DNA of 64,000 nucleotides. It comes from Blastocystis sp. Blastoise (lineage: Eukaryota; Protista; Bigyra: Opalinata). Below, piece after piece: positions 1-25,199 of this stretch. Positions within the stretch are counted from its first letter, which is position 1. Every line of letters begins with the position of its first letter. The notes under the pieces were generated by a model that was not told the DNA's origin, did no database searches, and saw nothing but the letters and a program-made list of their open reading frames with translations. The position numbers and the translations under genes were made by a program. The stretch lies in assembly GCA_039096225.1 (NCBI GenBank), contig JBBPEB010000005.1:992001-1056000 (forward strand), read 5' to 3'.

Positions 1-705
1 ACTATACCTACATGTATTCAAGTTGATTATCAAAATACAAGATTAACTACTAATCATTTCAATATCAATAGAGCTTTACCATTTATACCTGAATATATAT
101 TATTTTGGTTTACAAATGGTTATAGTTCAACAACTATTAGTAATATAGCTAGTCCAAATGTATGGCCAACATATCAAAGTTGTTTGATTGGTGATGTTCA
201 AATGTTCCCTCAAACTGAATTCCCTACTCAAATGTATTATCATAATCTTACTACAAAAGGTCATGTCTTCAATAATGCAGAAACTACTAGTTTATCTTGT
301 CCTAATAAGAATTTATATTGTTTATGGGCTGATAATTCAAATCCTGAAACTATTCTTAAATATGATGAATGGATTAAACATCCTATTTATATTATTCCAA
401 CAAAATCATTAATGAATATCCAATCAGATAGTGGTATTGAATTGAATTTCGATTGTAATGTTGATGTTCATGATGTTAAATATGAACATATTGATTCATC
501 CACTGTTCCTGATGGACAAACGTGTCAATGGAAAAGTTACGTTGATCCAACAGATAAAAAGACAAAATATCATTGGGAAGCTGATACTGCCTCTTATAAG
601 GTAGCTTCTCATGCTGGTATTTATAAACATACTACTACTGATCTAAGTGATAGTTCTCCTTATACCTTACATATGATTGCTGTACGTAGTGTACGTGATA
701 TTTAA
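1..705 (+). CDS. Major capsid protein-like paralog 1 (C-terminal part; 5' end outside window)
   Basis: Frame is open from base 1 (TIPTCIQ...NRALPFIPEYILFWFTN...IGDVQMFPQTEFPT...LYCLWADNSNP...WIKHPIYIIP...SGIELNF...YTLH...VRD). It is collinear with the C-terminal half of ORF 885-2108. Confidence 0.7.
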   Translation, partial: TIPTCIQVDYQNTRLTTNHFNINRALPFIPEYILFWFTNGYSSTTISNIASPNVWPTYQSCLIGDVQMFPQTEFPTQMYYHNLTTKGHVFNNAETTSLSCPNKNLYCLWADNSNPETILKYDEWIKHPIYIIPTKSLMNIQSDSGIELNFDCNVDVHDVKYEHIDSSTVPDGQTCQWKSYVDPTDKKTKYHWEADTASYKVASHAGIYKHTTTDLSDSSPYTLHMIAVRSVRDI

Positions 706-2950: not shown

Positions 2951-3988
2951 ATGGTGAATAAAATAAATCCATTAAAAGAAACACGTAAAGGATGTGGAGT
3001 TTTAGAATTCAAATATGGAAAATCACATCATAAAACATATGAATCAAAATTTATATTGATTATTGCAAGAACATTCTCAGGTAAATCTTTCTTAACTGTG
3101 AACCTCTTATGTTCTATGGATCTTAAAAATAAATATAAACAAGTCACAGTAATTTGTCCTGATGCATCCAATAAGAATGAATGTTATACATCCTTTCAAG
3201 ATATTTGTGAACATGCTGGAATTGATTATAAATGGTATGATTCTGTAGATGATAAATTTAAAAAGATTAAAACTGTTGATGAATTAGTCAATACATATAA
3301 ATTACCAGAACATAATTTTATTGTATTGGATGATATCTATCCATTATCTAGACAAACCAAACAATTGATTGTATCTATATTATCTAAAGGTCGTCATTAT
3401 AAACAGAATGCTATTATATGTCTTCAAAGTCATACAGATGTTACCAATCAATCTATATTAAGTCAAGTATCTCATTTCTTTATTAATAGTCAAATCTTAA
3501 AACGTGATCCTGGATTCTTACCAGATAAATTAAAGATTATGCCATCAAATCTAAATGAAATTCTTACAGATGAAGAATTAATGAATGATCCACATCAATT
3601 CTTTATGTTAAAACAAGGTAGTGATGATTTAACGATATGGACTAATCCTGATTGTGGTAGTAAACAGAATGTATATAAGATGGTAAAGAAAAGGAAATGG
3701 ACAGAAGAAGATAGTGAAAAAGAGAAACGAGAAGAACAAGGTGAAGTATCAGGTAGTGGATTGAAACGTCCTAATGAACATATATCTACATATGAAAAGA
3801 AAATGAAGAAGTTTTTACCTGTTGAAGAAGAAGTCTCATTGAAAGGTATTGAACGAGATGAAAAAGATAAACCTAAAGAATCCATCTTACAAATCATACA
3901 AGATCAAATCATACAAGATAGTCAACGACGCATTTTCAATCCTTATTTAAATAAAAAGCATTATTCTGGTTATCCATCTTTTCATTAA
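2951..3988 (+). CDS. A32/FtsK-HerA family viral genome-packaging ATPase
   Basis: Walker A variant ILIIARTFSGKS, Walker B FIVLDD, and the A32-type arginine-finger/Q motif SKGRHYKQNAIICLQ. Confidence 0.9.
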   Translation: MVNKINPLKETRKGCGVLEFKYGKSHHKTYESKFILIIARTFSGKSFLTVNLLCSMDLKNKYKQVTVICPDASNKNECYTSFQDICEHAGIDYKWYDSVDDKFKKIKTVDELVNTYKLPEHNFIVLDDIYPLSRQTKQLIVSILSKGRHYKQNAIICLQSHTDVTNQSILSQVSHFFINSQILKRDPGFLPDKLKIMPSNLNEILTDEELMNDPHQFFMLKQGSDDLTIWTNPDCGSKQNVYKMVKKRKWTEEDSEKEKREEQGEVSGSGLKRPNEHISTYEKKMKKFLPVEEEVSLKGIERDEKDKPKESILQIIQDQIIQDSQRRIFNPYLNKKHYSGYPSFH

Positions 3989-4040
3989 TTTTTTATATTT
4001 TAATTTATTATATAAACCATAATTATTTTATTGTTTTGTT

Positions 4041-5066
4041 ATGAGTTCAATTACAAAAAGATATTTAAAACAAAATTGTGATCCACGATTATTTGGAGGA
4101 TCACCACCAAAATCAAATAGACGTGATCTTTATCATAAACGTTATGTAAGATATGGAGGAACTGGATTTGAAGAAATTGTTAGACAACAAACTAGAGATG
4201 CTGATTGGGCTGATTTTAAAAATGGTGTCTATACTGCATTACCTATTTTAGGTACATTAGGAGCATTTGCTGGATATAATTATTATCAGAAACGTAAAGA
4301 ACAAAAACGTCAAGAAAAAGCAAAAGAAGAAAAGAAAAGACAATTTGAAGAACATATTGAAGATGCTAATAGAGATGATGAATTATATAATGATGATGCT
4401 ACTTATCAACCAAAGAGAATAACAAGAAAAATGATGGCTGATGATGATAAAGATTTTGATGATAATGTTGTTGATGAAGATGATTATGGTCAAGGTACCC
4501 ATAGAAGGCATCAGAAACATCGTAAAGAACATGGGAGTCACCGAGAAAAAGAAAAGAAAACAAGTAAATTCGTTACTCCTCAAATAAGAATTATTGCTAA
4601 GAAGTCTATTCGTTCTAGTAATGTAAAATCTAATAAGAAGAAATTACAAGATATTAAAGAACGATTACCTAAAAATGATGAGCATGTGTCTGTACGTGAT
4701 ATTGTTAATGTTGTTATCGATAAAGAATATCCTATGGATCCAAAACAAAAGCATTCTATTATTGCGAATACTGCTATTAAAACTATTAAAACGATTGTTC
4801 CTATTGTAGTGAATGCATTAAAATACTATTATCCTTCTCTTGGTATCCCTATTGATTTCGCTTATAATATGATTACTACTGATGATGATAAGAAACGTAA
4901 AGAAACTGCTGATAACTATTTTAAAAATCCTAGTGGAAGTGGTGTTACAAAAGAGAATGCTGAACGTTGTGGTGGTGCTCTTGTCAACTCTACATCCTTT
5001 GATACTACTACTAATTTAATTATTAATCTTGTTCAATTCTTCTTAAAAAAATTTCATTTAAATTAA
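4041..5066 (+). CDS. Putative virion core protein precursor
   Basis: Intact 341-aa ORF with LFGG, RYGG, YGQG, SGSG and RCGG motifs, a hydrophobic segment (ALPILGTLGAFAGYNYY), and alternating acidic and basic blocks. Function is inferred from context. Confidence 0.55.
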   Translation: MSSITKRYLKQNCDPRLFGGSPPKSNRRDLYHKRYVRYGGTGFEEIVRQQTRDADWADFKNGVYTALPILGTLGAFAGYNYYQKRKEQKRQEKAKEEKKRQFEEHIEDANRDDELYNDDATYQPKRITRKMMADDDKDFDDNVVDEDDYGQGTHRRHQKHRKEHGSHREKEKKTSKFVTPQIRIIAKKSIRSSNVKSNKKKLQDIKERLPKNDEHVSVRDIVNVVIDKEYPMDPKQKHSIIANTAIKTIKTIVPIVVNALKYYYPSLGIPIDFAYNMITTDDDKKRKETADNYFKNPSGSGVTKENAERCGGALVNSTSFDTTTNLIINLVQFFLKKFHLN

Positions 5067-5142
5067 TTATTTTAACTTTTATTATTTCATAATTAATTAT
5101 TTGTTTTGTTATATAATTATTTTTAAATTAATACAATAAATA

Positions 5143-6321
5143 ATGCAAAGTAATTTAGGAGATAGTGTAACTCTCTATGATATTTTATCAAGAAATCAGA
5201 AAAAACAATCTTGGGATCCATGGTTACCGAATTCATATATTTGTCAAGATGAACAACCTGTACAACCTTTAGCACATGATCCTAATGCACAAGGATCTAT
5301 GTATAGCTCAATGGCAGTTCAAGCATTGAGAAATCATGGTCAATCAACTGAAGATATGTTTATAGCTACTATGAATTCAGCTAAAGCTAATGGAGATACT
5401 GCAAGATACTCATCTATGTTATCTCAATGGCAAACTAATTATGGTGTACCTACTACCAGTAAGATATGGTATGATGCTAGTAATCCTAATAATTATCAAT
5501 ATGAAACGTTATTATCTTCAATAAAAGGCTTAAATGGATTGAATTCAGAAGCATATAAACAGAATAAAGAGAATTATGAATTCTATTCAAATGCTCAAAA
5601 AGATATGTATGATCAATTAAACAATATTTCATATCAAATTAAAACAAATAATGATGACATTCATGCTGAAGCAGCATCAATGAAACAAAATATGACTAAT
5701 AATTATGAAAATCTACATAAAGATAACGAATATTTGAACTCAAAGATGGATACAAATGAAAATAATCGTCAATCAGATAATAATATTACAAACTCTAAAA
5801 TGGATACATATGAAAATAATCGTAAAAAAGATGTTAACAATACAAATTCGAAGATGGATAAATATGAAAATAATCGTCATCAAGACTACAACAATACACA
5901 ATCTAGAATGGATAAATATGAAAAGAATCGTCAAAATGATACTAATAAAACAAACGCTAAGATGGATGAATATGAAAGTAACCGTAAAAAAGATGCCAAA
6001 GCATTTGAAGATAAGATGGATGAACAAGGTATGCATTATGATATTGTTGAAAGTGGCATACCATTCACAATTTATGTTAATGGTAAGAACTCAAAAGTAA
6101 TATGTAATCAGCCAGAGTTTAAGGATCAGGTATTCCTTCTTAAAGATGAAAAGATTTATGTCAGATCAGCTGAAAAGTCAGGTTATATATATAAAAAGTA
6201 CGGAACAATGCCACTTGATGAATTCATTAGCAAATATAATGAAGGCTTATTTAATGAAAATAAGGCACTTCCTGATAAAGAACATAGTGGATTAAGAAAT
6301 CATCAAAACGATGAAACTTAA
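5143..6321 (+). CDS. Viral protein with 18-aa tandem repeat coiled coil (fibre/spike candidate)
   Basis: 392-aa ORF. Five full copies plus a partial copy of SKMDxYExNRxxDxNxTN at 54-bp spacing (5740, 5794, 5848, 5902, 5956, 6010). Confidence 0.6.
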   Translation: MQSNLGDSVTLYDILSRNQKKQSWDPWLPNSYICQDEQPVQPLAHDPNAQGSMYSSMAVQALRNHGQSTEDMFIATMNSAKANGDTARYSSMLSQWQTNYGVPTTSKIWYDASNPNNYQYETLLSSIKGLNGLNSEAYKQNKENYEFYSNAQKDMYDQLNNISYQIKTNNDDIHAEAASMKQNMTNNYENLHKDNEYLNSKMDTNENNRQSDNNITNSKMDTYENNRKKDVNNTNSKMDKYENNRHQDYNNTQSRMDKYEKNRQNDTNKTNAKMDEYESNRKKDAKAFEDKMDEQGMHYDIVESGIPFTIYVNGKNSKVICNQPEFKDQVFLLKDEKIYVRSAEKSGYIYKKYGTMPLDEFISKYNEGLFNENKALPDKEHSGLRNHQNDET

Positions 6322-6443
6322 TAGACTATATTATATTTACTTATTTATGCAATATTATGTTTGCCATTTAAGTTATAATTTTGTTAATATATATTTATTT
6401 TTTTGTTTTGTTTTAAAATTCATAATTATTTTATTAAACTAAA

Positions 6444-7934
6444 ATGATACAAAGTGCTCGTTTAAATGTTTCAAATAAAGGATTAGTAGGCGTAAATCAT
6501 CGTGCTACTGGTCATGAATATCGAAATTATATTGTTCCAGGATCTATTCCTGATGGAGAAGAACGTTATCCAATTAATTATTCTATTGCTCCAAATTCAT
6601 TATATGCTGTTAAGAAAATTGAAAGTAATATGGTCAATAGAGCAACATCCAATCCATTTTTCTCCTATTTATCAGAAACCAGACAAGATATTATACAAAG
6701 TTCCTTAGAAGAATCAGAAGAAAGTGAACCAATAGATGAAGGATCTGGGTTATTACCTGATGGTAGAATTCCGAAGAATTTCACAAGAAAACTCATTTAT
6801 GCTCATGATTATGTCTTACCTTATATGAAACAAAATCATATGTCTGATTATGCTAAATATTCTAGATTATTAAATCCTCGTACAATTGATAGTGCAATTG
6901 ATTTTACTAAAAGAGATCGTGATGGTTATTTATATTCTAGAGGTGGTAATTTATTTTCTAATATTTATCACACTGTGAGTGATGTATATAATGTGTCTGA
7001 TAAATTAACTGGAGGTATTAATAACATCACTCATGGAATAAGTAATGCTGTTGATTATGGTGCAAATAAATTCAAAGATCTCAAGAATTGGTGGAGAGAT
7101 ATTAATGTTGATCCACAAGAAGGATTCAATGATATTAAAGGAAAACTTGTAAGTGATAGAAACAATTTATATGATAATTGGAAATTAACTGATGATAATG
7201 AAGCTAAGAAAAATAATAAAATATTAGCTGATAACTATTTCAGATTTGCTCATATGTCAGGTAATGATACTAAAGAACAAAGACTTAACAAAAAGGTATC
7301 TTTAGATAATCAAGCAACAACATTTCATAAAAATTATATTCCATATGCAGAAAACCCAACATTTGTTAATAAAGTTGTTAATACTGCAACAAATGTATCA
7401 AAACCTGTGTATAATGGCGTTAAGAAAGTTGCAAACTCTATTGTTAGTGGTACAAAGAACGCGTTTAATAGTTTTTCTAATTGGTGGTATGGTAAAAATC
7501 CAGAGGAAGAAATACCACAAACAGAAAATCCAATAGAAACAAATAATAATGTTATACCAACTTCTTCATCTACCCCTGATACTCTAACTCTAGAAAATAT
7601 TCATAATATTACCATAGAAGATTCAAATCCTCCAAATTTAATTCCTCTTATGAATGATCCTACTGTTCCTTTACCTGATACTGTTCCAATGTCTCAAGCA
7701 ATAACGAATAAATTCACTCCAAATATTACACCTGTAGCCCCGATTCCTAATCCAGTAGAAAATGTCACTCTTGAAAATAATAATAAACGAAATAAAAAAG
7801 AAGATGATGAATTTCAATCATTTGATGAAGATGATGGTGAGGTATTTTATGATCTCGAAGAAGGTAATGGATTACGTAGAAAAAGACGTATTTCAAAAAA
7901 TAAAAAATTAAGAAATAAACGTAGAAAACATTAG
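6444..7934 (+). CDS. Putative virion core / membrane-penetration precursor (adenovirus pVI-like organisation)
   Basis: 496 aa. EGSG, SRGG and LTGG motifs followed by amphipathic helices ending in NWW, a Pro-rich region, an acidic patch, and a C-terminal EGNG-LRRKRR basic tail. Confidence 0.55.
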   Translation: MIQSARLNVSNKGLVGVNHRATGHEYRNYIVPGSIPDGEERYPINYSIAPNSLYAVKKIESNMVNRATSNPFFSYLSETRQDIIQSSLEESEESEPIDEGSGLLPDGRIPKNFTRKLIYAHDYVLPYMKQNHMSDYAKYSRLLNPRTIDSAIDFTKRDRDGYLYSRGGNLFSNIYHTVSDVYNVSDKLTGGINNITHGISNAVDYGANKFKDLKNWWRDINVDPQEGFNDIKGKLVSDRNNLYDNWKLTDDNEAKKNNKILADNYFRFAHMSGNDTKEQRLNKKVSLDNQATTFHKNYIPYAENPTFVNKVVNTATNVSKPVYNGVKKVANSIVSGTKNAFNSFSNWWYGKNPEEEIPQTENPIETNNNVIPTSSSTPDTLTLENIHNITIEDSNPPNLIPLMNDPTVPLPDTVPMSQAITNKFTPNITPVAPIPNPVENVTLENNNKRNKKEDDEFQSFDEDDGEVFYDLEEGNGLRRKRRISKNKKLRNKRRKH

Positions 7935-8008: not shown

Positions 8009-8176
8009 TTAAAAATCAATAAAATTCTTGATATAATCTTCGTAATCATCCTCACTTTCAGTTTGAATAGTATCCATTTCAGAATCACTATCACTTAATT
8101 CATCAACTTCAAAGTTTCCATAAGGTTTCCAAGTACCTTGTTTATAATCTGGAGCAAATTGCTTTGGAGAATTCAT
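8009..8176 (-). CDS. Small acidic protein, 55 aa (below ORF-track cutoff)
   Basis: MNSPKQFAPDYKQGTWKPYGNFEVDELSDSDSEMDTIQTESEDDYEDYIKNFIDF*. Coding-like composition between AT-rich spacers, convergent with the structural genes. Confidence 0.65.
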   Translation of the reverse strand: MNSPKQFAPDYKQGTWKPYGNFEVDELSDSDSEMDTIQTESEDDYEDYIKNFIDF

Positions 8177-8221
8177 AATAAATAGTATAAAAATAGAAAA
8201 AATTCACAATACAATTTTATT

Positions 8222-8251
8222 GTTCTAGAATGTTCTAGAATGTTCTCGAAA
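8222..8251. promoter_or_regulatory. Perfect heat-shock-element-like array (six alternating nTTCn/nGAAn pentamers)
   Basis: gTTCt aGAAt gTTCt aGAAt gTTCt cGAAa, 46-75 bp upstream of the ATG at 8176. Confidence 0.55.
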
Positions 8252-8852
8252 ATTTTTAGTTTTCCATATCGGTCGGTCATGTTTCCAAAAGTCTCTCGTT
8301 ATAGTCGTGGTGGTGGGTACATCTTTTTACAAGACCACACCACCACCAGCTTTTCTTTCACCCACTATAAATACATACCTTGATCACTTTACTCTTTTTA
8401 TATAATTTTTTTATGATTATCATGACTTTTTATATTATTTATTGATCACTATACATACATTTTTATTTTTATATATTCCCGTGATTATTTTTATTATTTC
8501 TTTTTAGATAGAACCATCCATTTCATCTTTTCTCTATATAAAGGGAGGGTCGGGGTGTGTGTTTATTTAGCACATTCTGTGCTTCTTTTCGTATTTCTTT
8601 CTGTATTCCCGTGATTATTTTACTCACTTTACCAACGATGGAGTCATTTTCCATGAATATTCCCTGTAAAGGGGAGGGTTGGACTGTGTATTTTATTTCT
8701 TTTATGATTACTATGAGTTTCTCCTTGATCACTTTACGTTTCACGTTGGAATCGGAACACAAATAAATTAAAAATAAATAAACATGGGAAAAAATAAATA
8801 CACACACACACTACCCTACACTCCCATGGTTATTTTACTTCAGAAATGTTAT

Positions 8853-8997
8853 TAATTCTTCCGTCGAGAACAAAAAGGGGGGATGACTTCCCCGCTTATG
8901 GCTGCGCGCGTCGCGCAGACTCTATGCGGGGTTTGCATACCCCCTTCTGCAGTTCGAAGAACGGAAGAATTATTAGTTTAACGAATCAACTAATACT
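8853..8997. other. GC-rich imperfect palindrome plus small hairpin at the putative element terminus
   Basis: Stems 8853-8864/8961-8972 (12 bp perfect), 8875-8885/8936-8946, 8890-8895/8926-8931 and 8902-8908/8912-8918. Second hairpin 8971-8978/8988-8995. Confidence 0.7.
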
Positions 8998-10331: not shown

Positions 10332-11898
10332 TATACTTTTTTATTAGTAAATAATATTTAAAATAATTAATAAGAAATAATGTCCCAAAATACTGATGGA
10401 CAACAACCAAACACTCAGACAACTTCAGAAACGTATAACTATTTATATATACCCTAATATATATAGTAATATATATAATTAGTATTATAGATATAACAAA
10501 TAGAACAATATAAAAAAAATTAAACGTGACATATATAATAAACATATATTATATTATATATCTAGTCTACTAAAGACTCTTGCTCTTATTTCTGTCATTA
10601 CACGACTAATACACTTTCTAATAGTACCACTATCAATAGACTTCCATTCATCACTTATTCTTTGTATAAAATCATCAATTCCATTCCATCTTGTTATGTT
10701 TCTTTCAGCATTTCCTTTCCATATACTGAATACATTTTCTATCGGGTTCATATCAGGACTATAAGGAGGACCATATATTACTGGGATCTCAAATTCATTA
10801 CATATATCATTTATAAGGCCTTTTTGGTGTACCGGCGCATTATCCATATATAAGCAAATATTCATATCATCTTCAGTATAATGAGTTAGTGCAGCACGTA
10901 GAAAATTACCAAAAACAGCTCCAGTAACAGAATTACTAAATAATTCTGTGTATCCAGCTCCAGTATTACTGATGGTTGCAATTGCTGTAAGAGATAATCT
11001 TTTTGATAAATGATGATAATATATTTTCTCACCTACTTTACCCCATCCATACTGCGAGAAATTGTTAAAAGACCAGTGCACTTCATCTAAATAAATTATT
11101 CTTTTACCTTCATGTATCATATTATCTATTTCATTGTATACTTCTATTCTTCTTGTTTTGTTATCATCATTATTTGAATTTTGACCACGTTTATAAAGCT
11201 TTTTGACATTAAAAGATGCACCAACATGTTCAGCCATACGACTACTATGTAGATGTTTTGCTACAGTGGCTTTAGAACAAAAAGAAGTTGTATTACTTTC
11301 TTTCAACGATTTCAATTCTTCTTCAGCTTGTATTCTTACATCTTCAGGTACATCATAAGTTTCAGTCACCCTTTCGAAGATTGAATTAGTAGAAGTATCA
11401 GATAATACTAAGACAGCATCATTGAGAGTTAATTTTGGATTTATAATGAACATATTCTTCAGTTTTTTGGACATATTAGGTGTAATAATAGCATGCCTAC
11501 CACTCTTTCTACGTTCTTTTATTAAAGGAGTATTGTTTACTAACTTTCTTACATATCGTTTAACTATATCTAGCTTTATATCTAACTGGAGTGAATAATC
11601 TTCTGGTGTCCATCGAACACCGTGAATTGACCACAAGTCCATTAATCGTTGTTTTTCAGAATCAGGTATCTTAGTATTCTTTCTTTTCCCAGTCTCAGTA
11701 GCCAGAAACGAATCATGATCACGTTGATTAATTAAGGAAATACGAGACGAGCGTCTTGCATTACTATATATATTAGGGTATATATAAATAGTTATACGTT
11801 TCTGAAGTTGTCTGAGTGTTTGGTTGTTGTCCATCAGTATTCTGGGACATTATTTCTTATTAATTATTTTAAATATTATTTACTAATAAAAAAGTATA
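10332..11898 (-). mobile_element. Tc1/IS630-family DNA transposon with 139-bp inverted repeats
   Basis: 10332-10470 is the reverse complement of 11760-11898 (one mismatch seen). Both outer ends are TA, consistent with a TA target duplication. The repeats enclose a DDE transposase. Confidence 0.75.
10554..11850 (-). CDS. DD34E transposase (IS630/Tc1, DDE_3)
   Basis: IIYLDE, LYMDNAPVH and PPYSPDMNPIENVFS; 34 residues between the second D and the E. Probable start at 11850 with a 34-nt GT-AG intron at 11764-11797 (alternative unspliced start at 11834). Confidence 0.9.
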
Positions 11899-18545: not shown

Positions 18546-20520
18546 TAGAGCGGTTCAAAAGTTGCAACAAGTTGCGACAAGTTGTGATAGTATTTAAAAA
18601 CATTTTTTCCTTGATAAATAAAACAAATTTTTAATAAAGAAAACATAAATAAAACATAAAAATACAAATTATGAATTAATTAAGAAAAAATATTAATCAA
18701 GATTAATCTCTGAAACATTACTAAAAGTAGATAAATTATCAAAAAGTTGAAAAAAAAATCATCAAGAGAATCAGATAAAAGACTATTTGAATTGAAATTT
18801 CTATCATAAACATCAGTTTCATGTTCATTTGATAATATTTCATTATCATCTATAATTGTTATTGAAGAATCATTAATTGTAGTATCTATTTCATCTTCAA
18901 TAATCATTGAATCATTTTGAATTGAAATAGTATCTATTTGTGGATTCATATAGAAAAATAAATCTCTGAACAAATTTTCATCAGAATAACCAAATTTCTT
19001 CTTTGTAAATAAAATATTCATAAAAGAGAAAGATCTTTCTACACTAACAGTAGTAGAAGGTAATTGAAGAATGAAAGTAATTATTTTAGAAATAGAAGGA
19101 ATTTGTTTAAGAATAGGAAAATATAATTTTATCATTTGTTCTTTACTTATCATATTTTGAGGAAAACATTCATTTTATTTCTTCTCATTATCTATAAAAT
19201 CTTTCAATTTTGAAACACATAATAAATAATCTTTCTTTTCTATATCTAAAAATTCAGATGAAGTGAAAGAAGGAAATGAAGAAGACATCAAGAAAGGATT
19301 TTCATTATAAAATATCATTTGTTTCTTATTCATTGTTTTGATTTCTTTCAATTTTAATAATGTATTCGTAAAACATATATAATATAAAATAATAATAAAT
19401 AATAAATATACTTTTCTTATATTCTTGAATAAATGAAGATTGAACATTTGATAAATTATTTTCTTCACATATTTCATTCACTATCATAATTATATTATCT
19501 TTTGAATTCTTCAATTCTTCTTCAATTTCATCTATCAAACTAGAAACATTACAACATTGAAAATTATCATTGGATAATAATTTTAATATTTCTTCAAACA
19601 TTATTCCACTCTTCAAGAGAATCGATATTTTGATTTGTAAAGAAGAAGATAATTGATTATCTTGAAGAATATTCAATATTTCTTTATCTTTTTCACTTAA
19701 CATATCCAATGTTTCTAAATATTCATAGAATGATTTCAAATATTTAAAATGTTTCAAAATATATCTTAATGATTTATACCAAGATATCCATCGTGTTTCT
19801 TTAAATAAGAAAAGAAAGAAGACGAAGGAAGATTATTTATCTTTAAAAAGGATAACCATATATCATTTTTCTTTCTAAAGAAACGAAATGATGAATTAAT
19901 GAGATTAATAAATGATTTAGTATTAATAAAACCATCTTTTAGTTTCTCAGCTACTAAATTAATCATATGCATAAAACATCCACAATAAATTCCATCACTA
20001 AAAATCGATTCATAATTATTACCAGCATTTCGCATAGTATTACAGTTATCAGTGTGAAACGATTTGAATTGTTTTCTTTTAATGTTCCATTCTTCTAATG
20101 TATCTTGAATGATAGAAAGAAAAATATTAGATTTTTGATTTTCCATTCGTTTCAAGTTTATTAAGTAGAAAGGTTCATTCAAATTGAAAGAATTCAATCT
20201 TCTTACGATTATTGATAAATAATTAGAACCAGCATCTGAGGTAGAAGAATCACATAGAACAGCTAGAGAACATTTATCTAAACTCATTTTTACATATTGA
20301 ATACGTTCATCATACAATTTAGGTATAATTCGTTTTTGAATAGTATTATAACATGGCATATTATTATTATTCATTTCAAATATATTTTTCAATTTCATTC
20401 TAAATTGAGGTTTCTTGAATTTATTAATAGGAATACATTCTTCTAAAAATAATTCTATTAATTTTTCAAATCTTAAATAATTCACATTAGATTCAATAAT
20501 TCTATTGTTATTATTATTAG
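18546..20520 (-). mobile_element. hAT transposon, 5'-truncated copy B
   Basis: TIR TAGAGCGGTTCAAAAGTTGC at 18546. Transposase fragments on the - strand are near-identical to copy A. Cut off at 20520 by another TIR. Confidence 0.85.
18680..20510 (-). pseudogene. hAT transposase, truncated/disrupted
   Basis: Motifs AVLCDSST, FHTDN, CFMHMINL (CxxH), TRW (in a shifted frame) and LPSTTVSVERSFS. Frameshift and in-frame stop; lacks the N-terminal zinc finger. Confidence 0.85.
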
Positions 20521-20918
20521 TAGAGCGGTTCAAAAGTTGCGATAAAAGTTGTGACAAGTTGCGACAAAAGTTGCGACAAAGTTGCGACAAGTTGTGACAA
20601 GTTGCGACACTTTTTATATCTCATTTGTGAGCCATATATTTATTATATAATAAATTTATATATATAATTATAGAGAGATTTACATGATGATTACATAAAT
20701 AATTTTTAAATAAATTAAAAATAAGTTTAATACTCTTAATAAGCGTTTTAAACACTAAAAATTGAATTTTTAAAGTCAAAATTATTCTATAAATATCGTT
20801 ATTTTAATCATTTTAACAATCTTTTAACGATTTTTAAAATATTATATTATTTTTATATTATAAGAATAATGTTATTAAATATAAAAAGTGAAAAATTGCA
20901 TGTCATAGATAGAGCGGT
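20521..20918 (-). mobile_element. Inverted right end of the non-autonomous hAT derivative
   Basis: Reverse complement of ~23533-23918, beginning with the TIR and AAGTTGCGAC subterminal repeats and ending in a 9-bp TIR stub. Confidence 0.8.
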
Positions 20919-21510
20919 TAGAGCGGTTCAAAAGTTGCGACAAATTTCACAACTTGTCGCAACTTGTCGCAATTTGTCGCAACTTTTTTAATCATGAATA
21001 ATGGCGAGAGTCCCGTAATTATTTTATTAATTTGGCAATTAAAAAAGACTTGTTTAAAAAAAGAATTCAGTGTCGCAATTTGTCACAACTTTGTCACAAC
21101 TTTTCATTTAAACATATATAGACCTATTTTACATTTATATAAAATATGATAATTTATGAAATTCATAGTGGTGAATATAATAAGCATCAAGAATTATTTA
21201 AATACTTAATTCAAACAAAGAAAAACATTAAAAATACTTTTCAAAAAATCATGAATATTTTTTTTACAGTCAAAAAAATGAAATATTCACGGGACATTAT
21301 TAATTTTCAGTCATTTTAAAATGTATAAATAATTGAAAGAAATCATCTCATTTTCATTAATTTATATTTCTATATAAATCGTTCTTTCAATATAGATTCA
21401 TTCATCTATTCATAAAGTCTTCTTTAATACTCATTTCTATCAATAAAATATCATTCTAAGAATCAAAAGAAGTATATATATGTATTCATCATTCTTAATT
21501 ATCTTTAGAT

Positions 21511-24500
21511 ATGGTTAAAAAAACAATGAAACAATCTAATAATCATAAAGTGAAAAGAAAAGAAAAGAAGAAGTCTTCATCTACTAAGAAAAGTGAGAAT
21601 GTTAGAACGAGAATCTACAAAATGAATCCAATAAGTCGTTTAACAAAAATAAAATTATCATCCAGTATGAATGAAGAAGAAAAGAAATGTTTCATATCAA
21701 AGAATAATAATCTTCGTTGTATTTATTGTAATTGTATTGTAGATCATAAAAGATTATCTTCTATTAATAAACATCTCAATACTGATATGCATATTTCTAA
21801 TATGAATTCATTCATGAAAGAAAAGTCTGCTACTGTATCTTCTGTAAAGAAAACTAATACTAAAAATAGAATTATTGAATCTAATGTGAATTATATAAGA
21901 TTTGAAAAATTAATAGAATTATTTTTAGAAGAATGTATTCCTATTAATAAATTCAAGAAACCTCAATTTAGAATGAAATTGAAAAATATATTTGAAATGA
22001 ATAATAATAATATGCCATGTTATAATACTATTCAAAAACGAATTATACCTAAATTATATGATGAACGTATTCAATATGTAAAAATGAATTTAGATAAATG
22101 TTCTCTAGCTGTTCTATGTGATTCTTCTACCTCAGATGCTGGTTCTAATTATTTATCAATAATCGTAAGAAGATTGAATTCTTTCAATTTGAATGAACCT
22201 TTCTACTTAATAAACTTGAAACGAATGGAAAATCAAAAATCTAATAATTATCTTTCTATCATTCAAGATACATTAGAAGAATGGAATATTAGAAGAAAAC
22301 AGTTTAATCGTTTCATACAGATAACTGTAATACTATGCGAATAGAGCGGTTCAAAAGTTGCGACAAATCGAGTTGCGACAAATTTCACAACTTGTCGCAA
22401 CTTGTCGCAATTTGTCGCAACTTTTTTAACCATTAATAATGGCGAGAGTACCGCGATTATTTTATTAATTTGGCAATTAAAAAAGACTTGTTTAAAAAAT
22501 GAATTCAGTGTCGCAATTTGTCACAACTTTGTCACAACTTTTCATTTAAACATATATTCAATTAATATTTTATATAATAGAATATTTCATTATATAAATA
22601 AAGTAGTAACAAATATATATACCAAATTTCATTTTATAAAAATGAAAAGATCATATGAAATGAATTAGAGTAAGAATTCAAAATATTTTGAATAATTTTT
22701 TTACAGTCAAAAATTTGATTTATTTACGGGATAAAACCATTTTTGACTCATTTTTGAAATTACATTTTTTAATCAAAATTCAAATGAATTTCAATTTTAT
22801 TTTCTTTGCATTATTTATCCATTTTCAATTGAAATCATAGTTTGTATTATTTATAGCATTTAATAATGTGAATGATTTCATTAATACATTGATTTTAGAT
22901 CTTTTTGAAATGATTTATTTTTTATCAACTCATTTTATCATCTAATTAAGCATATTATATTTATAATTGACTATTAATTATCATATAGATACATATTTAT
23001 ATCATAATGATTCATTATATGATGTTTAATGAAGAATGTTAAAAATTGAATTTTGATGAAATTCAATAATTTGAATATATATGTATTCAATATCTTATTA
23101 AAGACTCATACGAAAGAAATGAATCAATTTTTTAAATATTATATGCTTAATGAGCTCATTTTGTCTTCAATGAAGCTTTTATGACATTCAATTCTTCACT
23201 TTTTATATTTAATAACATTATTTTGATAATATAAAAATAATATCATACTTTAAAAATCGTTAAAAGAATTAAAAAATGATTAAAATAAGTATATTTATCT
23301 AATGAATTTTTCTTATGAATTTCAAAAATTTCAATTTTTAGTGTTTAAAACGCTTATTTTGTGTATTAAACTTATTTTTAATTTATTTAAAAATTATTTA
23401 TGTAATCATCATGTAAATATCTTTATAATTATATATTTAAATATATTTTATAATAAATATATGACTTACAAATGAGATATAAAAAGTGTCACAACTGTCT
23501 TAACTTGTCGCAACTTTTCTCACAACTTTTGAACCGCTCTATCTATGACATTCAATTTTTCACTTTTTATATTTAATAACATTATTCTTATAATATAAAA
23601 ATAATATAATATTTTAAAAATCGTTAAAAGATTGTTAAAATGATTAAAATAACGATATTTATAGAATAAATTTGACTTTAAAAAATCAATTTTTAGTGTT
23701 TAAAACGCTTATTAAGAGTGTTAAACTTATTTTTAATTTATTTAAAAATTATTTATGTAATCATCATGTAAATCTCTCTATAATTATATATATAAATTTA
23801 TTATATAATAAATATATGGCTTACAAATGAGATATAAAAAGTGTCGCAACTTGTCGCAACTTGTCACAACTTTGTCGCAACTTGTCGCAACTTTTGTCGC
23901 AACTTTTGAACCGCTCTAATGCATATGATTAATTTAGTAGCTGAGAAACTAAAAGATGGTTTTATTAATACTAAATCATTTATTAATCTCATTAATTCAT
24001 CATTTCGTTTCTTTAGAAAGAAAAATGATTTATGGTTATCCTTTTTAAAGATAAATAATCTTCCTTCGTCTTCTTTCTTTTCTTATTTAAAGAAACACGA
24101 TGGATATCTTGGTATAAATCATTAAGATATATTTTGAAACATTTTAAATATTTGAAATCATTCTATGAATATTTAGAAACATTGGATATGTTAAGTGAAA
24201 AAGATAAAGAAATATTGAATATTCTTCAAGATAATCAATTATCTTCTTCTTTACAAATCAAAATATCGATTCTCTTGAAGAGTGGAATAATGTTTGAAGA
24301 AATATTAAAATTATTATCCAATGATAATTTTCAATGTTGTAATGTTTCTAGTTTGATAGATGAAATTGAAGAAGAATTGAAGAATTCAAAAGATAATATA
24401 ATTATGATAGTGAATGAAATATGTGAAGAAAATAATTTATCAAATGTTCAATCTTCATTTATTCAAGAATATAAGAAAAGTATATTTATTATTTATTATT

Positions 24501-25199
24501 ATTTTATATTATATATGTTTTACGAATACATTATTAAAATTGAAAGAAATCAAAACAATGAATAAGAAACAAATGATATTTTATAATGAAAATCCTTTCT
24601 TGATGTCTTCTTCATTTCCTTCTTTCACTTCATCTGAATTTTTAGATATAGAAAAGAAAGATTATTTATTATGTGTTTCAAAATTGAAAGATTTTATAGA
24701 TAATGAGAAGAAATAAAATGAATGTTTTCCTCAAAATATGATAAGTAAAGAACAAATGATAAAATTATATTTTCCTATTCTTAAACAAATTCCTTCTATT
24801 TCTAAAATAATTACTTTCATTCTTCAATTACCTTCTACTACTGTTAGTGTAGAAAGATATTTCTCTTTTATGAATATTTTATTTACAAAGAAGAAATTTG
24901 GTTATTCTGATGAAAATTTGTTTAGAGATTTATTTTTCTATATGAATTCACAAACAGATACTATTTCAATTCAAAATGATTCAATGATTATTGAAGATGA
25001 AATAGATACTACAATTAATGATTCTTCAATAACAATTATAGATGATAATGAAATATTATCAAATGAAAATGAAAATGAAGAAAAAAATACAAATTTCAAT
25101 TCAAATAGTGTTTTATCTGATTCTCTTGATGATATTTTATCAATTTCTTTTGATAATTTATCTACTTTCAGTAATGTTTCAGAGATCAATCTTGATTAA
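21511..25199 (+). pseudogene. hAT transposase (CGGBP1-like zinc finger), disrupted
   Basis: N-terminal CIYCNCIVDHKRLSSINKHLNTDMH finger, catalytic and dimerisation motifs. Interrupted at 22342-23918, with frameshifts and a stop at 24714. Confidence 0.85.
22342..23918 (+). mobile_element. Non-autonomous hAT derivative with one left end and two tandem right ends
   Basis: TIR at 22342 and reverse TIRs ending at 23541 and 23918. The ~350-bp right-end segment is duplicated. No coding capacity. Confidence 0.85.

Follow-up and report, generated by a model that had tools for sequence, protein, structure and literature searches.

Glycine-directed maturation of virion proteins is already known in adenoviruses, virophages and adomaviruses. 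The adenovirus protease adenain follows the strict rule (M/I/L)xGG/X or (M/I/L)xGX/G, in which the last slash marks the cut (PMC4246237), and the mavirus protease is reported to cut at GG/X and GX/G (PMC6048507). According to the literature covered, the adenovirus precursor pVI is cut directly upstream of a membrane-lytic helix at residues 34-54 (10.1101/857581) and frees the 11-residue basic cofactor pVIc by a second cut (PMC4246237), and the pVI/pX-like protein LO6 of adomaviruses was found cleaved in virions (10.1101/341131). From Blastocystis datasets, a MELD virus has been reported that encodes pPolB and an integrase and whose virion proteins are unrecognisable (PMC8502044), and a MELD-virus figure legend marks 'VI'-like genes (PMC8502044; 10.1101/341131). 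The present analysis concerns a host-integrated element in a stretch of 64,000 nucleotides (nt) of Blastocystis sp. Blastoise, which as a whole is referred to as the window. The element is a multi-copy Polinton-like (MELD) virus with its virion-gene arm in view, i.e. only the right arm at positions 1 to ~8997.

Three open reading frames (ORFs) of this arm, namely the packaging ATPase (ORF 2951), ORF 4041 and ORF 6444, carry recurrent GG and GxG motifs. A first-pass annotation had interpreted these as maturation sites of virion polyproteins, an interpretation that is partly supported overall. In our judgement the conserved glycine sites are probably substrates of an element-encoded vUlp1/adenain-like protease of virophage-like specificity, which would mature the precursor of a protein VI-like entry protein and probably also that of a core protein. 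Since glycine-directed maturation is known from the three virus groups mentioned above, this would be a variant of a known scheme; what would be new is that the VI-like module lies internally and that the packaging ATPase may be trimmed.

Glycine motifs in the three ORFs

All eleven motifs listed by the first-pass annotation are present in the ORFs to which it had assigned them (first glycines at nt 4095, 4155, 4488, 4935 and 4971 in ORF 4041 and at the starts of the site rows of Table 1 in the ATPase and ORF 6444), together with a twelfth, GTG, which overlaps RYGG in ORF 4041. Compared to composition shuffles, the three ORFs contain 12 GG or GxG versus 4.7-4.8 expected (p 0.001-0.002; p 0.014 when corrected for picking the best out of 35 triples). 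The seven ORFs of the element together have 15 versus 8.3 (p 0.011-0.015), and the remaining four ORFs hold 3 versus 3.6; ORF 5143, located within the interval 2951-7934 spanned by the three ORFs, has no GG or GxG in its 392 amino acids (aa). GG alone is not enriched in the three ORFs (5 versus 2.4, p 0.09). The combination of GxG with a following hydrophobic residue, a pattern defined post hoc when the data had already been seen, occurs 6 times versus 0.67 in the three ORFs and 3 times versus 3.2 in the control, which consisted of the 20 host and transposon ORFs of the window. A DNA-level repeat as the origin of the motifs was ruled out since their codons differ. The enrichment by itself is modest because the control ORFs also show an excess of GxG, and conservation is the better evidence.

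The motifs had furthermore been placed at boundaries between acidic, basic and amphipathic blocks, which holds for some of the sites. Strong acidic-to-basic steps (top 4% of positions) were detected at 3 of the 12, namely G150 of ORF 4041 and G100 and G474 of ORF 6444, and four sites (G39 of ORF 4041; G100, G167 and G190 of ORF 6444) precede helices within the top 6-12% of hydrophobic moment. At KGCG, LFGG, SGSG and RCGG the charge step is not unusual.

ORF 6444 and its likeness to adenovirus protein VI

The protein encoded by ORF 6444 consists of a conserved N-terminal domain, a GG, amphipathic helices, a Pro-rich variable part, an acidic block, a GxG and a basic tail, in this order. A profile search against 1.84 billion representatives yielded ten matches. 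Two belong to the window family, five are diverged homologues, and P0132, excluded from the counts, is a P0126-type fragment; the remaining two, P0131 and P0133, were dropped as false matches driven by repeats. The five diverged homologues originate from ENA/Logan contigs of at most 24 kb and are 29-39% identical across the first 200 aa. Of these, all four that extend far enough have the GG at residues 166-171, and in each an amphipathic or hydrophobic stretch follows next, as judged by a lenient score. All five have an extra GxG ~10 residues upstream of the GG, which the window copy is without, and together they contain 23 GxG versus 9.5 expected, a count in which the homologues are not mutually independent.

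The C-terminal GxG with its basic tail was detected in 18/19 members of the window family and in P0128 and P0129, and is absent from P0109, P0130/P0169 and P0139/P0141. The acidic-EGNG-basic layout recurs in P0128 and an acidic-GxG-basic layout in P0108, and P0129 has GKGKG and a basic tail without the acidic block. By eye, the sequence GKG/GIKIPKRYCF near the C-terminus of P0129 resembles the pVIc peptide GVQSLKRRRCF, and P0128 ends with PPSY, a PPxY motif like that described for adenovirus protein VI.

When the homologue P0126 was searched against the PDB with an E cut-off of 10, all six matches obtained were adenovirus pre-protein VI (E 7.7e-5 to 5.7e-3). The alignment starts with NGG/AATW versus SGG/AFSW (in longer stretches NGG/AATWADTWNGIK versus SGG/AFSWGSLWSGIK), and the 217-aa chain 6b1t_X aligns to P0126 from the first residue past the GG cut. 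The cut-off of the Pfam family MCPVI (PF02993; 28.4 bits) was not reached by P0126 (16 bits, E 0.012) or by P0139 and P0141 (14.3 bits), and the family gave nothing for the window ORF 6444 or P0128-P0130. A Foldseek search with the model of ORF 6444 revealed no significant match in the viral and PDB libraries and generic helical matches only (Z <6). As in protein VI, a GG, here the putative cut site, directly precedes an amphipathic helix, which supports a VI-like way of working, not membership in the family. Taken together, ORF 6444 is quite likely to be a protease substrate.

The packaging ATPase

The ATPase sequence contains the motifs ARTFSGKS and FIVLDD, which we take to be Walker A and Walker B, as well as GRH and Q motifs. 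Its residues 24-257 match PHROG 2666 (head and packaging; E 1.9e-10), and the best Foldseek match of its model, which is of low confidence, was a MELD virus protein (E 3.3e-4), followed by many viral packaging ATPases at weak E. An FtsK/HerA packaging ATPase of the kind that characterises Polinton, Polinton-like and MELD viruses is thus present in the element.

Two GxG sites flank this catalytic, PHROG-matched domain. In a set of 56 full-length relatives, which represent ~8 lineages and are 45-100% identical, a GxG within the first 35 residues was found in 54 (absent in P0008 and P0069). The linker behind the domain carries GxG-[LIVMC] in 48/56, another GG or GxG in 5/56 and neither in 3/56. 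Across the eight lineages G268 is kept in 7/8 and G270 in 6/8, amid flanks with gaps and a pairwise identity of 7-17%. The middle residue of the linker motif is S, K, R or G in 25, 16, 6 and 1 of the 48 ATPases, respectively, as a cut at GX/G permits; since these enzymes presumably need a glycine at P2, the large middle residues fit GX/G, with X as P1, and would not suit cleavage behind the second glycine. That the ATPase is a substrate of the maturation protease is nevertheless a tentative proposal, which we hold to be possible rather than probable.

The ATPase relatives P0002-P0005 (ENA/Logan contigs of at most 27.5 kb) share 76-80% identity with the window protein, and some copies named from the same organism as the window share only 45-69%, i.e. 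less than P0002-P0005. These identities hint at several virus lineages within one host and at movement between hosts.

ORF 4041

ORF 4041, which has the highest density of GG and GxG among the ORFs, is a probable core-protein precursor. A homologue search retrieved only its own cluster with copies that are 91-99% identical and no diverged homologue. There was no usable match in the ESM Atlas or Pfam, the PDB matches were at chance level only, and no profile similarity to ORF 6444 was detected. In the window copy four residues are missing upstream of G150-Q-G152. We lean slightly towards regarding ORF 4041 as a protease substrate.

Cleavage specificity

The first-pass annotation had referred to the adenain sites (M/L/I)xGG/X and (M/L/I)xGX/G and to di-glycine cleavage by the related virophage protease. 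The strict requirement at P4 mostly fails, as 2/12 window sites (LFGG and LTGG) comply with it and [MIL]xGxG occurs 0 times in this copy; exceptions of the strict form are IFGQG in 13/15 copies of ORF 4041 and IAGHG in P0108. The looser virophage-type pattern GG/X or GX/G fits, all 12 sites agreeing with it by definition. As with sites of the virophage protease MVP, glycine sites are kept in otherwise variable regions (GG167-168 of ORF 6444 in 4/4 homologues, the ATPase linker in 53/56 relatives), some other sites being unconserved. The specificity therefore seems to resemble that of the virophage protease, with little preference at P4, rather than that of strict adenain. Because it looks virophage-type, the cut in a GxG would be located before the second glycine and not behind it, where it had originally been drawn. 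The designation as polyprotein precursors was likewise overstated, since the proteins seem to be precursors from which leaders and tails are trimmed off, and not polyproteins.

Alternative explanations

A number of observations weigh against cleavage by an element-encoded protease. No protease was seen in the right arm, the part in view, and none of the long frames of the window contains Q-x(3-5)-CG. Nearly all Polintons and all virophages are reported to encode a maturation protease, while classical Polinton-like viruses (PLVs) are without it (PMC4642659); among other groups, Gosseviruses and about half of VC35 are described as having a protease (10.64898/2026.06.19.733378). The conservation check that had been proposed along with the first-pass annotation turned out in favour of GG167-168 of ORF 6444, of both ATPase GxG and, in 2/4 diverged homologues, of the C-terminal site of ORF 6444. 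The other two lack this site, LTGG has a counterpart (VTGGI) in only 1/4, and conservation fails at several of the sites. Counts over the five diverged homologues show no enrichment of GG by itself (6 versus 9.6) and a single strict adenain pattern versus 2.5 expected. Both sites are missing from the ATPase lineage that has diverged most (P0008/P0069), and the close copy P0018 reads GSS. Glycines outside the motifs are conserved as well, G13, G16, G23 and G161 of ORF 6444 being equally invariant and several further glycines of the ATPase conserved. The control ORFs contain 13 GxG versus 7.6 (p 0.04, 1.7-fold) and 19 GG or GxG versus 14.9 (p 0.15). The structure models of ORF 6444 and the ATPase have a mean predicted local distance difference test (pLDDT) score of 45 each, the latter being too poor for judging the exposure of sites. 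Protein VI was not retrieved by the window protein, by P0128-P0130, by profile A4 or by profile A6 (without P0126), the match is confined to the lineage of P0126, P0139 and P0141, and short amphipathic helices can arise by convergence. Due to these failed retrievals, membership of ORF 6444 in the protein VI family is unsupported, and its sequence points to a protein that likely works like protein VI. Not all motifs need be used by a protease, LTGG, SGSG, RCGG and G100 being the weakest.

Part of these observations would also agree with purely structural glycines, i.e. hinges, helix caps or flexible linkers at domain borders, in which case nothing would be cut and the resemblance to protein VI would be a convergent amphipathic helix. 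The GxG excess in the host ORFs, the invariance of non-motif glycines and the restriction of the pVI match to one lineage are consistent with it, as is the location of G100-L103 of ORF 6444 where its model is most confident (pLDDT ~82, with beta bridges), because of which G100-S-G102 may be a structural turn. However, a mere linker would have no need of glycines at constant G-x-G spacing around a variable middle residue, or of a hydrophobic residue behind them, amid indels, the pVI alignment starts at a known cut site, and GxG with a hydrophobic residue is not enriched in the host ORFs. We consider structural glycines unlikely. Still less probable appears a cut by some other protease, be it a Ulp1/SENP-type enzyme of the host, an enzyme of a large helper virus or a vOTU domain of the element polymerase, in an element without a stand-alone adenain-like gene. 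Host Ulp1 requires a SUMO fold ahead of the GG, which counts against the host enzyme. The lack of a maturation protease in many PLVs and in the window would be explained in this way, and polinton pPolB has a vOTU cysteine-protease domain with a proposed role in polymerase processing (PMC11161782). On the other hand, GX/G with a free P1 is, in the literature covered, a signature of viral clan CE maturation enzymes, and adenovirus and mavirus encode and package their own protease. The G-x-G-hydrophobic motif could finally be a docking signal common to internal virion proteins, e.g. for the capsid cavity, instead of a cleavage site. In favour of this, the motif is found in element proteins that are unrelated to each other, even in the ATPase, a protein that does not figure among the substrates named for the adenovirus protease in the literature covered. 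However, its repeated occurrence at charge borders within one protein and the coincidence with the known cut site in the pVI alignment make such a signal very improbable.

Proposed maturation and its implications

If the conserved sites are cut by an element-encoded protease, ORF 6444 would enter the particle as a precursor, and the predicted virus-encoded cysteine protease of the Ulp1/adenain family would mature the particle post-assembly. A cut after G168 would free the amphipathic helix, which would later breach the host membrane on entry, and a cut at GN/G would free the 21-residue basic tail, which would bind DNA and possibly take the role that the cofactor pVIc has in adenovirus. Cleavage of ORF 4041 as a core precursor would yield acidic, basic (residues 152-300, net +16) and hydrophobic fragments. 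In the ATPase, cuts at GC/G and GS/G after packaging would release or switch off the motor. We regard the trimming of a packaging ATPase, which would be a new feature, as doubtful, and the combined scenario of a virus protease that trims its own packaging motor post-packaging at these two sites and excises an internal VI-like module from a larger precursor as similarly questionable. No report of packaging-ATPase cleavage or of cleavage sites in this element was found in the literature, of which the coverage is incomplete.

The proposed maturation would provide a working identity for virion genes of Blastocystis DNA viruses that otherwise lack annotation, would tie the adenovirus entry protein to protist-infecting relatives and predicts an unseen vUlp1 protease gene with the specificity outlined above. 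A VI-like helix behind a conserved cut site would imply that integrated elements still encode an entry apparatus. If true, cleavage of the packaging ATPase would be a step not found in the literature covered on adenovirus or mavirus, and the commonest gut protist would harbour an endogenous virus that combines adenovirus-style entry maturation with ATPase trimming. Polinton virions have so far been unobserved according to the literature covered. Since the host is culturable and carries many intact copies, Polinton-type virion maturation would be directly testable.

The element and its surroundings

The seven ORFs of the element are co-oriented and intronless and are followed by a non-coding terminal region (Table 1).

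Table 1. Features of the element and the glycine sites discussed; positions refer to the window.
Feature	Position	Strand	Basis or remark
3' part of second major-capsid-like gene	1..705	+	no GG/GxG; 5' end beyond window
Capsid-like protein, 407 aa	885..2108	+	ESM Atlas feature similarity 0.97 to viral clusters
Probable penton (minor capsid) protein, 223 aa	2209..2880	+	size and position; no GG/GxG
FtsK/HerA (A32-like) packaging ATPase, 345 aa	2951..3988	+	sequence motifs and PHROG 2666
ATPase site 1, G14-C-G16	2990..2998	+	predicted cut GC/G, 15-aa leader off
ATPase site 2, G268-S-G270, in hypervariable linker	3752..3760	+	predicted cut GS/G, 76-aa tail off
341-aa protein with hydrophobic, acidic and basic blocks and 6 GG/GxG (ORF 4041)	4041..5066	+	motif count 6 versus 1.6 expected, p 0.002
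ORF 4041 G150-Q-G152 at acidic-to-basic step	4488..4496	+	strict adenain form IFGQG in 13/15 copies
392-aa protein with five 54-nt repeats (18-aa unit)	5143..6321	+	repeat family D1; no GG/GxG
Protein-VI-like precursor, 496 aa (ORF 6444)	6444..7934	+	diverged homologues, P0126 match to pre-protein VI, model
ORF 6444 G100-S-G102 after acidic block	6741..6749	+	GSGL in 3/5 diverged homologues, shifted GSGP in 1/5, absent in 1/5
ORF 6444 G167-G168, best-supported site, adjoining amphipathic helix	6942..6947	+	GG at 166-171 in 4/4 long-enough diverged homologues
ORF 6444 LTGG, G190-G191	7011..7016	+	strict adenain form; 19/19 close copies
ORF 6444 G474-N-G476	7863..7871	+	cut would free 21-aa tail, net +13, positioned like adenovirus pVIc
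Non-coding region at the right terminus, containing short repeats and palindromes	8150..8997	.	sequence

Clustering at 90% yielded 11, 18, 15 and 9 distinct sequences for the ATPase, ORF 4041, ORF 6444 and ORF 885, respectively, nearly all of them annotated in NCBI as "hypothetical protein" of Blastocystis sp. Blastoise. Since these clusters derive almost entirely from one organism name, the element is regarded as multi-copy; many near-identical intact copies in one host, with host genes alongside, characterise it as endogenous. A second copy was not found within the window. No relative turned up in viral contigs, for which the ATPase, a degenerate pattern of it, alignment A1, ORF 885, P0128 and P0126 served as queries, in scans of metagenome contigs and genome contigs or in tblastn searches of a phage collection. 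Among sequencing runs, no RNA run was listed as containing the element. One sequencing run contained a small share (0.16) in short, partly diverged contigs, none of which extends past the ends of the element, and was not used as evidence.

ORF 1-705 and ORF 885 are adjacent capsid-like paralogues (31% identity across 136 aa, E 2e-16), the former with an insertion near its C-terminus; mixed capsomers may be formed by viruses with several major capsid proteins (MCPs). Language-model features place ORF 885 near viral capsid clusters, and one of the ESM Atlas clusters matched carries PF21738 (DJR-like) on 10% of its members; Pfam and PHROG gave no match, and the PDB matches were weak and non-viral only. 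ORF 2209 is presumably the penton protein, partly by a C-terminal pattern that we take to be typical, and database searches gave no supporting match for it. The five repeats of ORF 5143 span positions 5635-5995, and the 18-aa unit suggests that the protein is probably a coiled coil or a fibre or stalk.

Polinton ends follow the rule 5'-AG...CT-3'. The probable right end of the element, which is the only end in view, is ACTAATACT at 8989-8997, the reverse complement of which starts with AG. Just inside it, at 8850-8975, lies a nest of inverted repeats whose core is GC-rich and which may serve as an origin or as a packaging signal. The sequence TGTTTTGTT occurs at positions 782, 2169, 2925, 4032, 5102, 6404 and 7984 (+), ~35-82 nt past all seven viral stop codons, and the window contains 14 copies versus 1.2 expected, 7/14 of them outside the element. 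Because it is present after every viral stop codon, that of the last gene included, it looks like a 3'-end signal. A downstream gene element has been described in human Blastocystis subtypes and is reported as not enriched in tortoise isolates (PMC10690189); TGTTTTGTT is similar to it and may be a variant host signal or a signal brought by the virus.

Beyond the element, a DDE transposon is followed by AT-rich, intron-rich host genes, ribosomal L27 being among those downstream. The transposon is of the DDE_3 (IS630/Tc1-like) type, lies at 10332-11898, ~1.3 kb from the viral end, encodes an intact 426-aa ORF (10554-11834, -) and has terminal inverted repeats of 139 nt that are 99% complementary. 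At 18680-25199 an inverted duplicate set of ORFs (18680-20590, -; 21511-22344 and 24134-25199, +) was detected, which presumably represents pieces of hAT-type transposases.

Comparison with known systems

With Trimcap and other multi-MCP Polinton-like viruses (10.64898/2026.06.19.733378) the element shares the occurrence of more than one capsid-like paralogue per element, the difference being that two, 31% identical across 136 aa, are in view here in the right arm only. The Blastocystis MELD virus (PMC8502044), compared by its description only, is likewise a midsize Blastocystis DNA virus with unrecognisable virion proteins, and a cleavage-site analysis for protist MELD viruses was not found in the literature covered. 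Core proteins of adintoviruses and adomaviruses also belong to the closest known systems; the likeness to adomaviruses lies in LO6, which is described as pVI/pX-like and found cleaved (10.1101/341131).

With adenovirus pre-protein VI and adenain the element has in common the GG directly before an amphipathic helix, for which the homologue P0126 provides a sequence match, a basic C-terminal peptide after GX/G, present in part of the ORF 6444 family, and several precursors with common glycine motifs. In contrast to adenovirus, the helix is preceded by ~168 residues instead of 33, proteins of the ORF 6444 family range from 373 to 1129 aa, the rule of a hydrophobic P4 is mostly not followed, the host is a protist, the virus is integrated, and sites are also located in the packaging ATPase. 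In mavirus, the substrate shown is the C-terminal domain of the 606-aa MCP, and probably MV13 is another (PMC6048507), whereas the capsid-like protein of the present element has 407 aa without a Gly-rich tail and the sites are found in two unknown proteins and the ATPase. The loose GG/X and GX/G specificity, and the clustering of sites in variable regions where they are kept across relatives, are shared with the mavirus and virophage MVP as described there.

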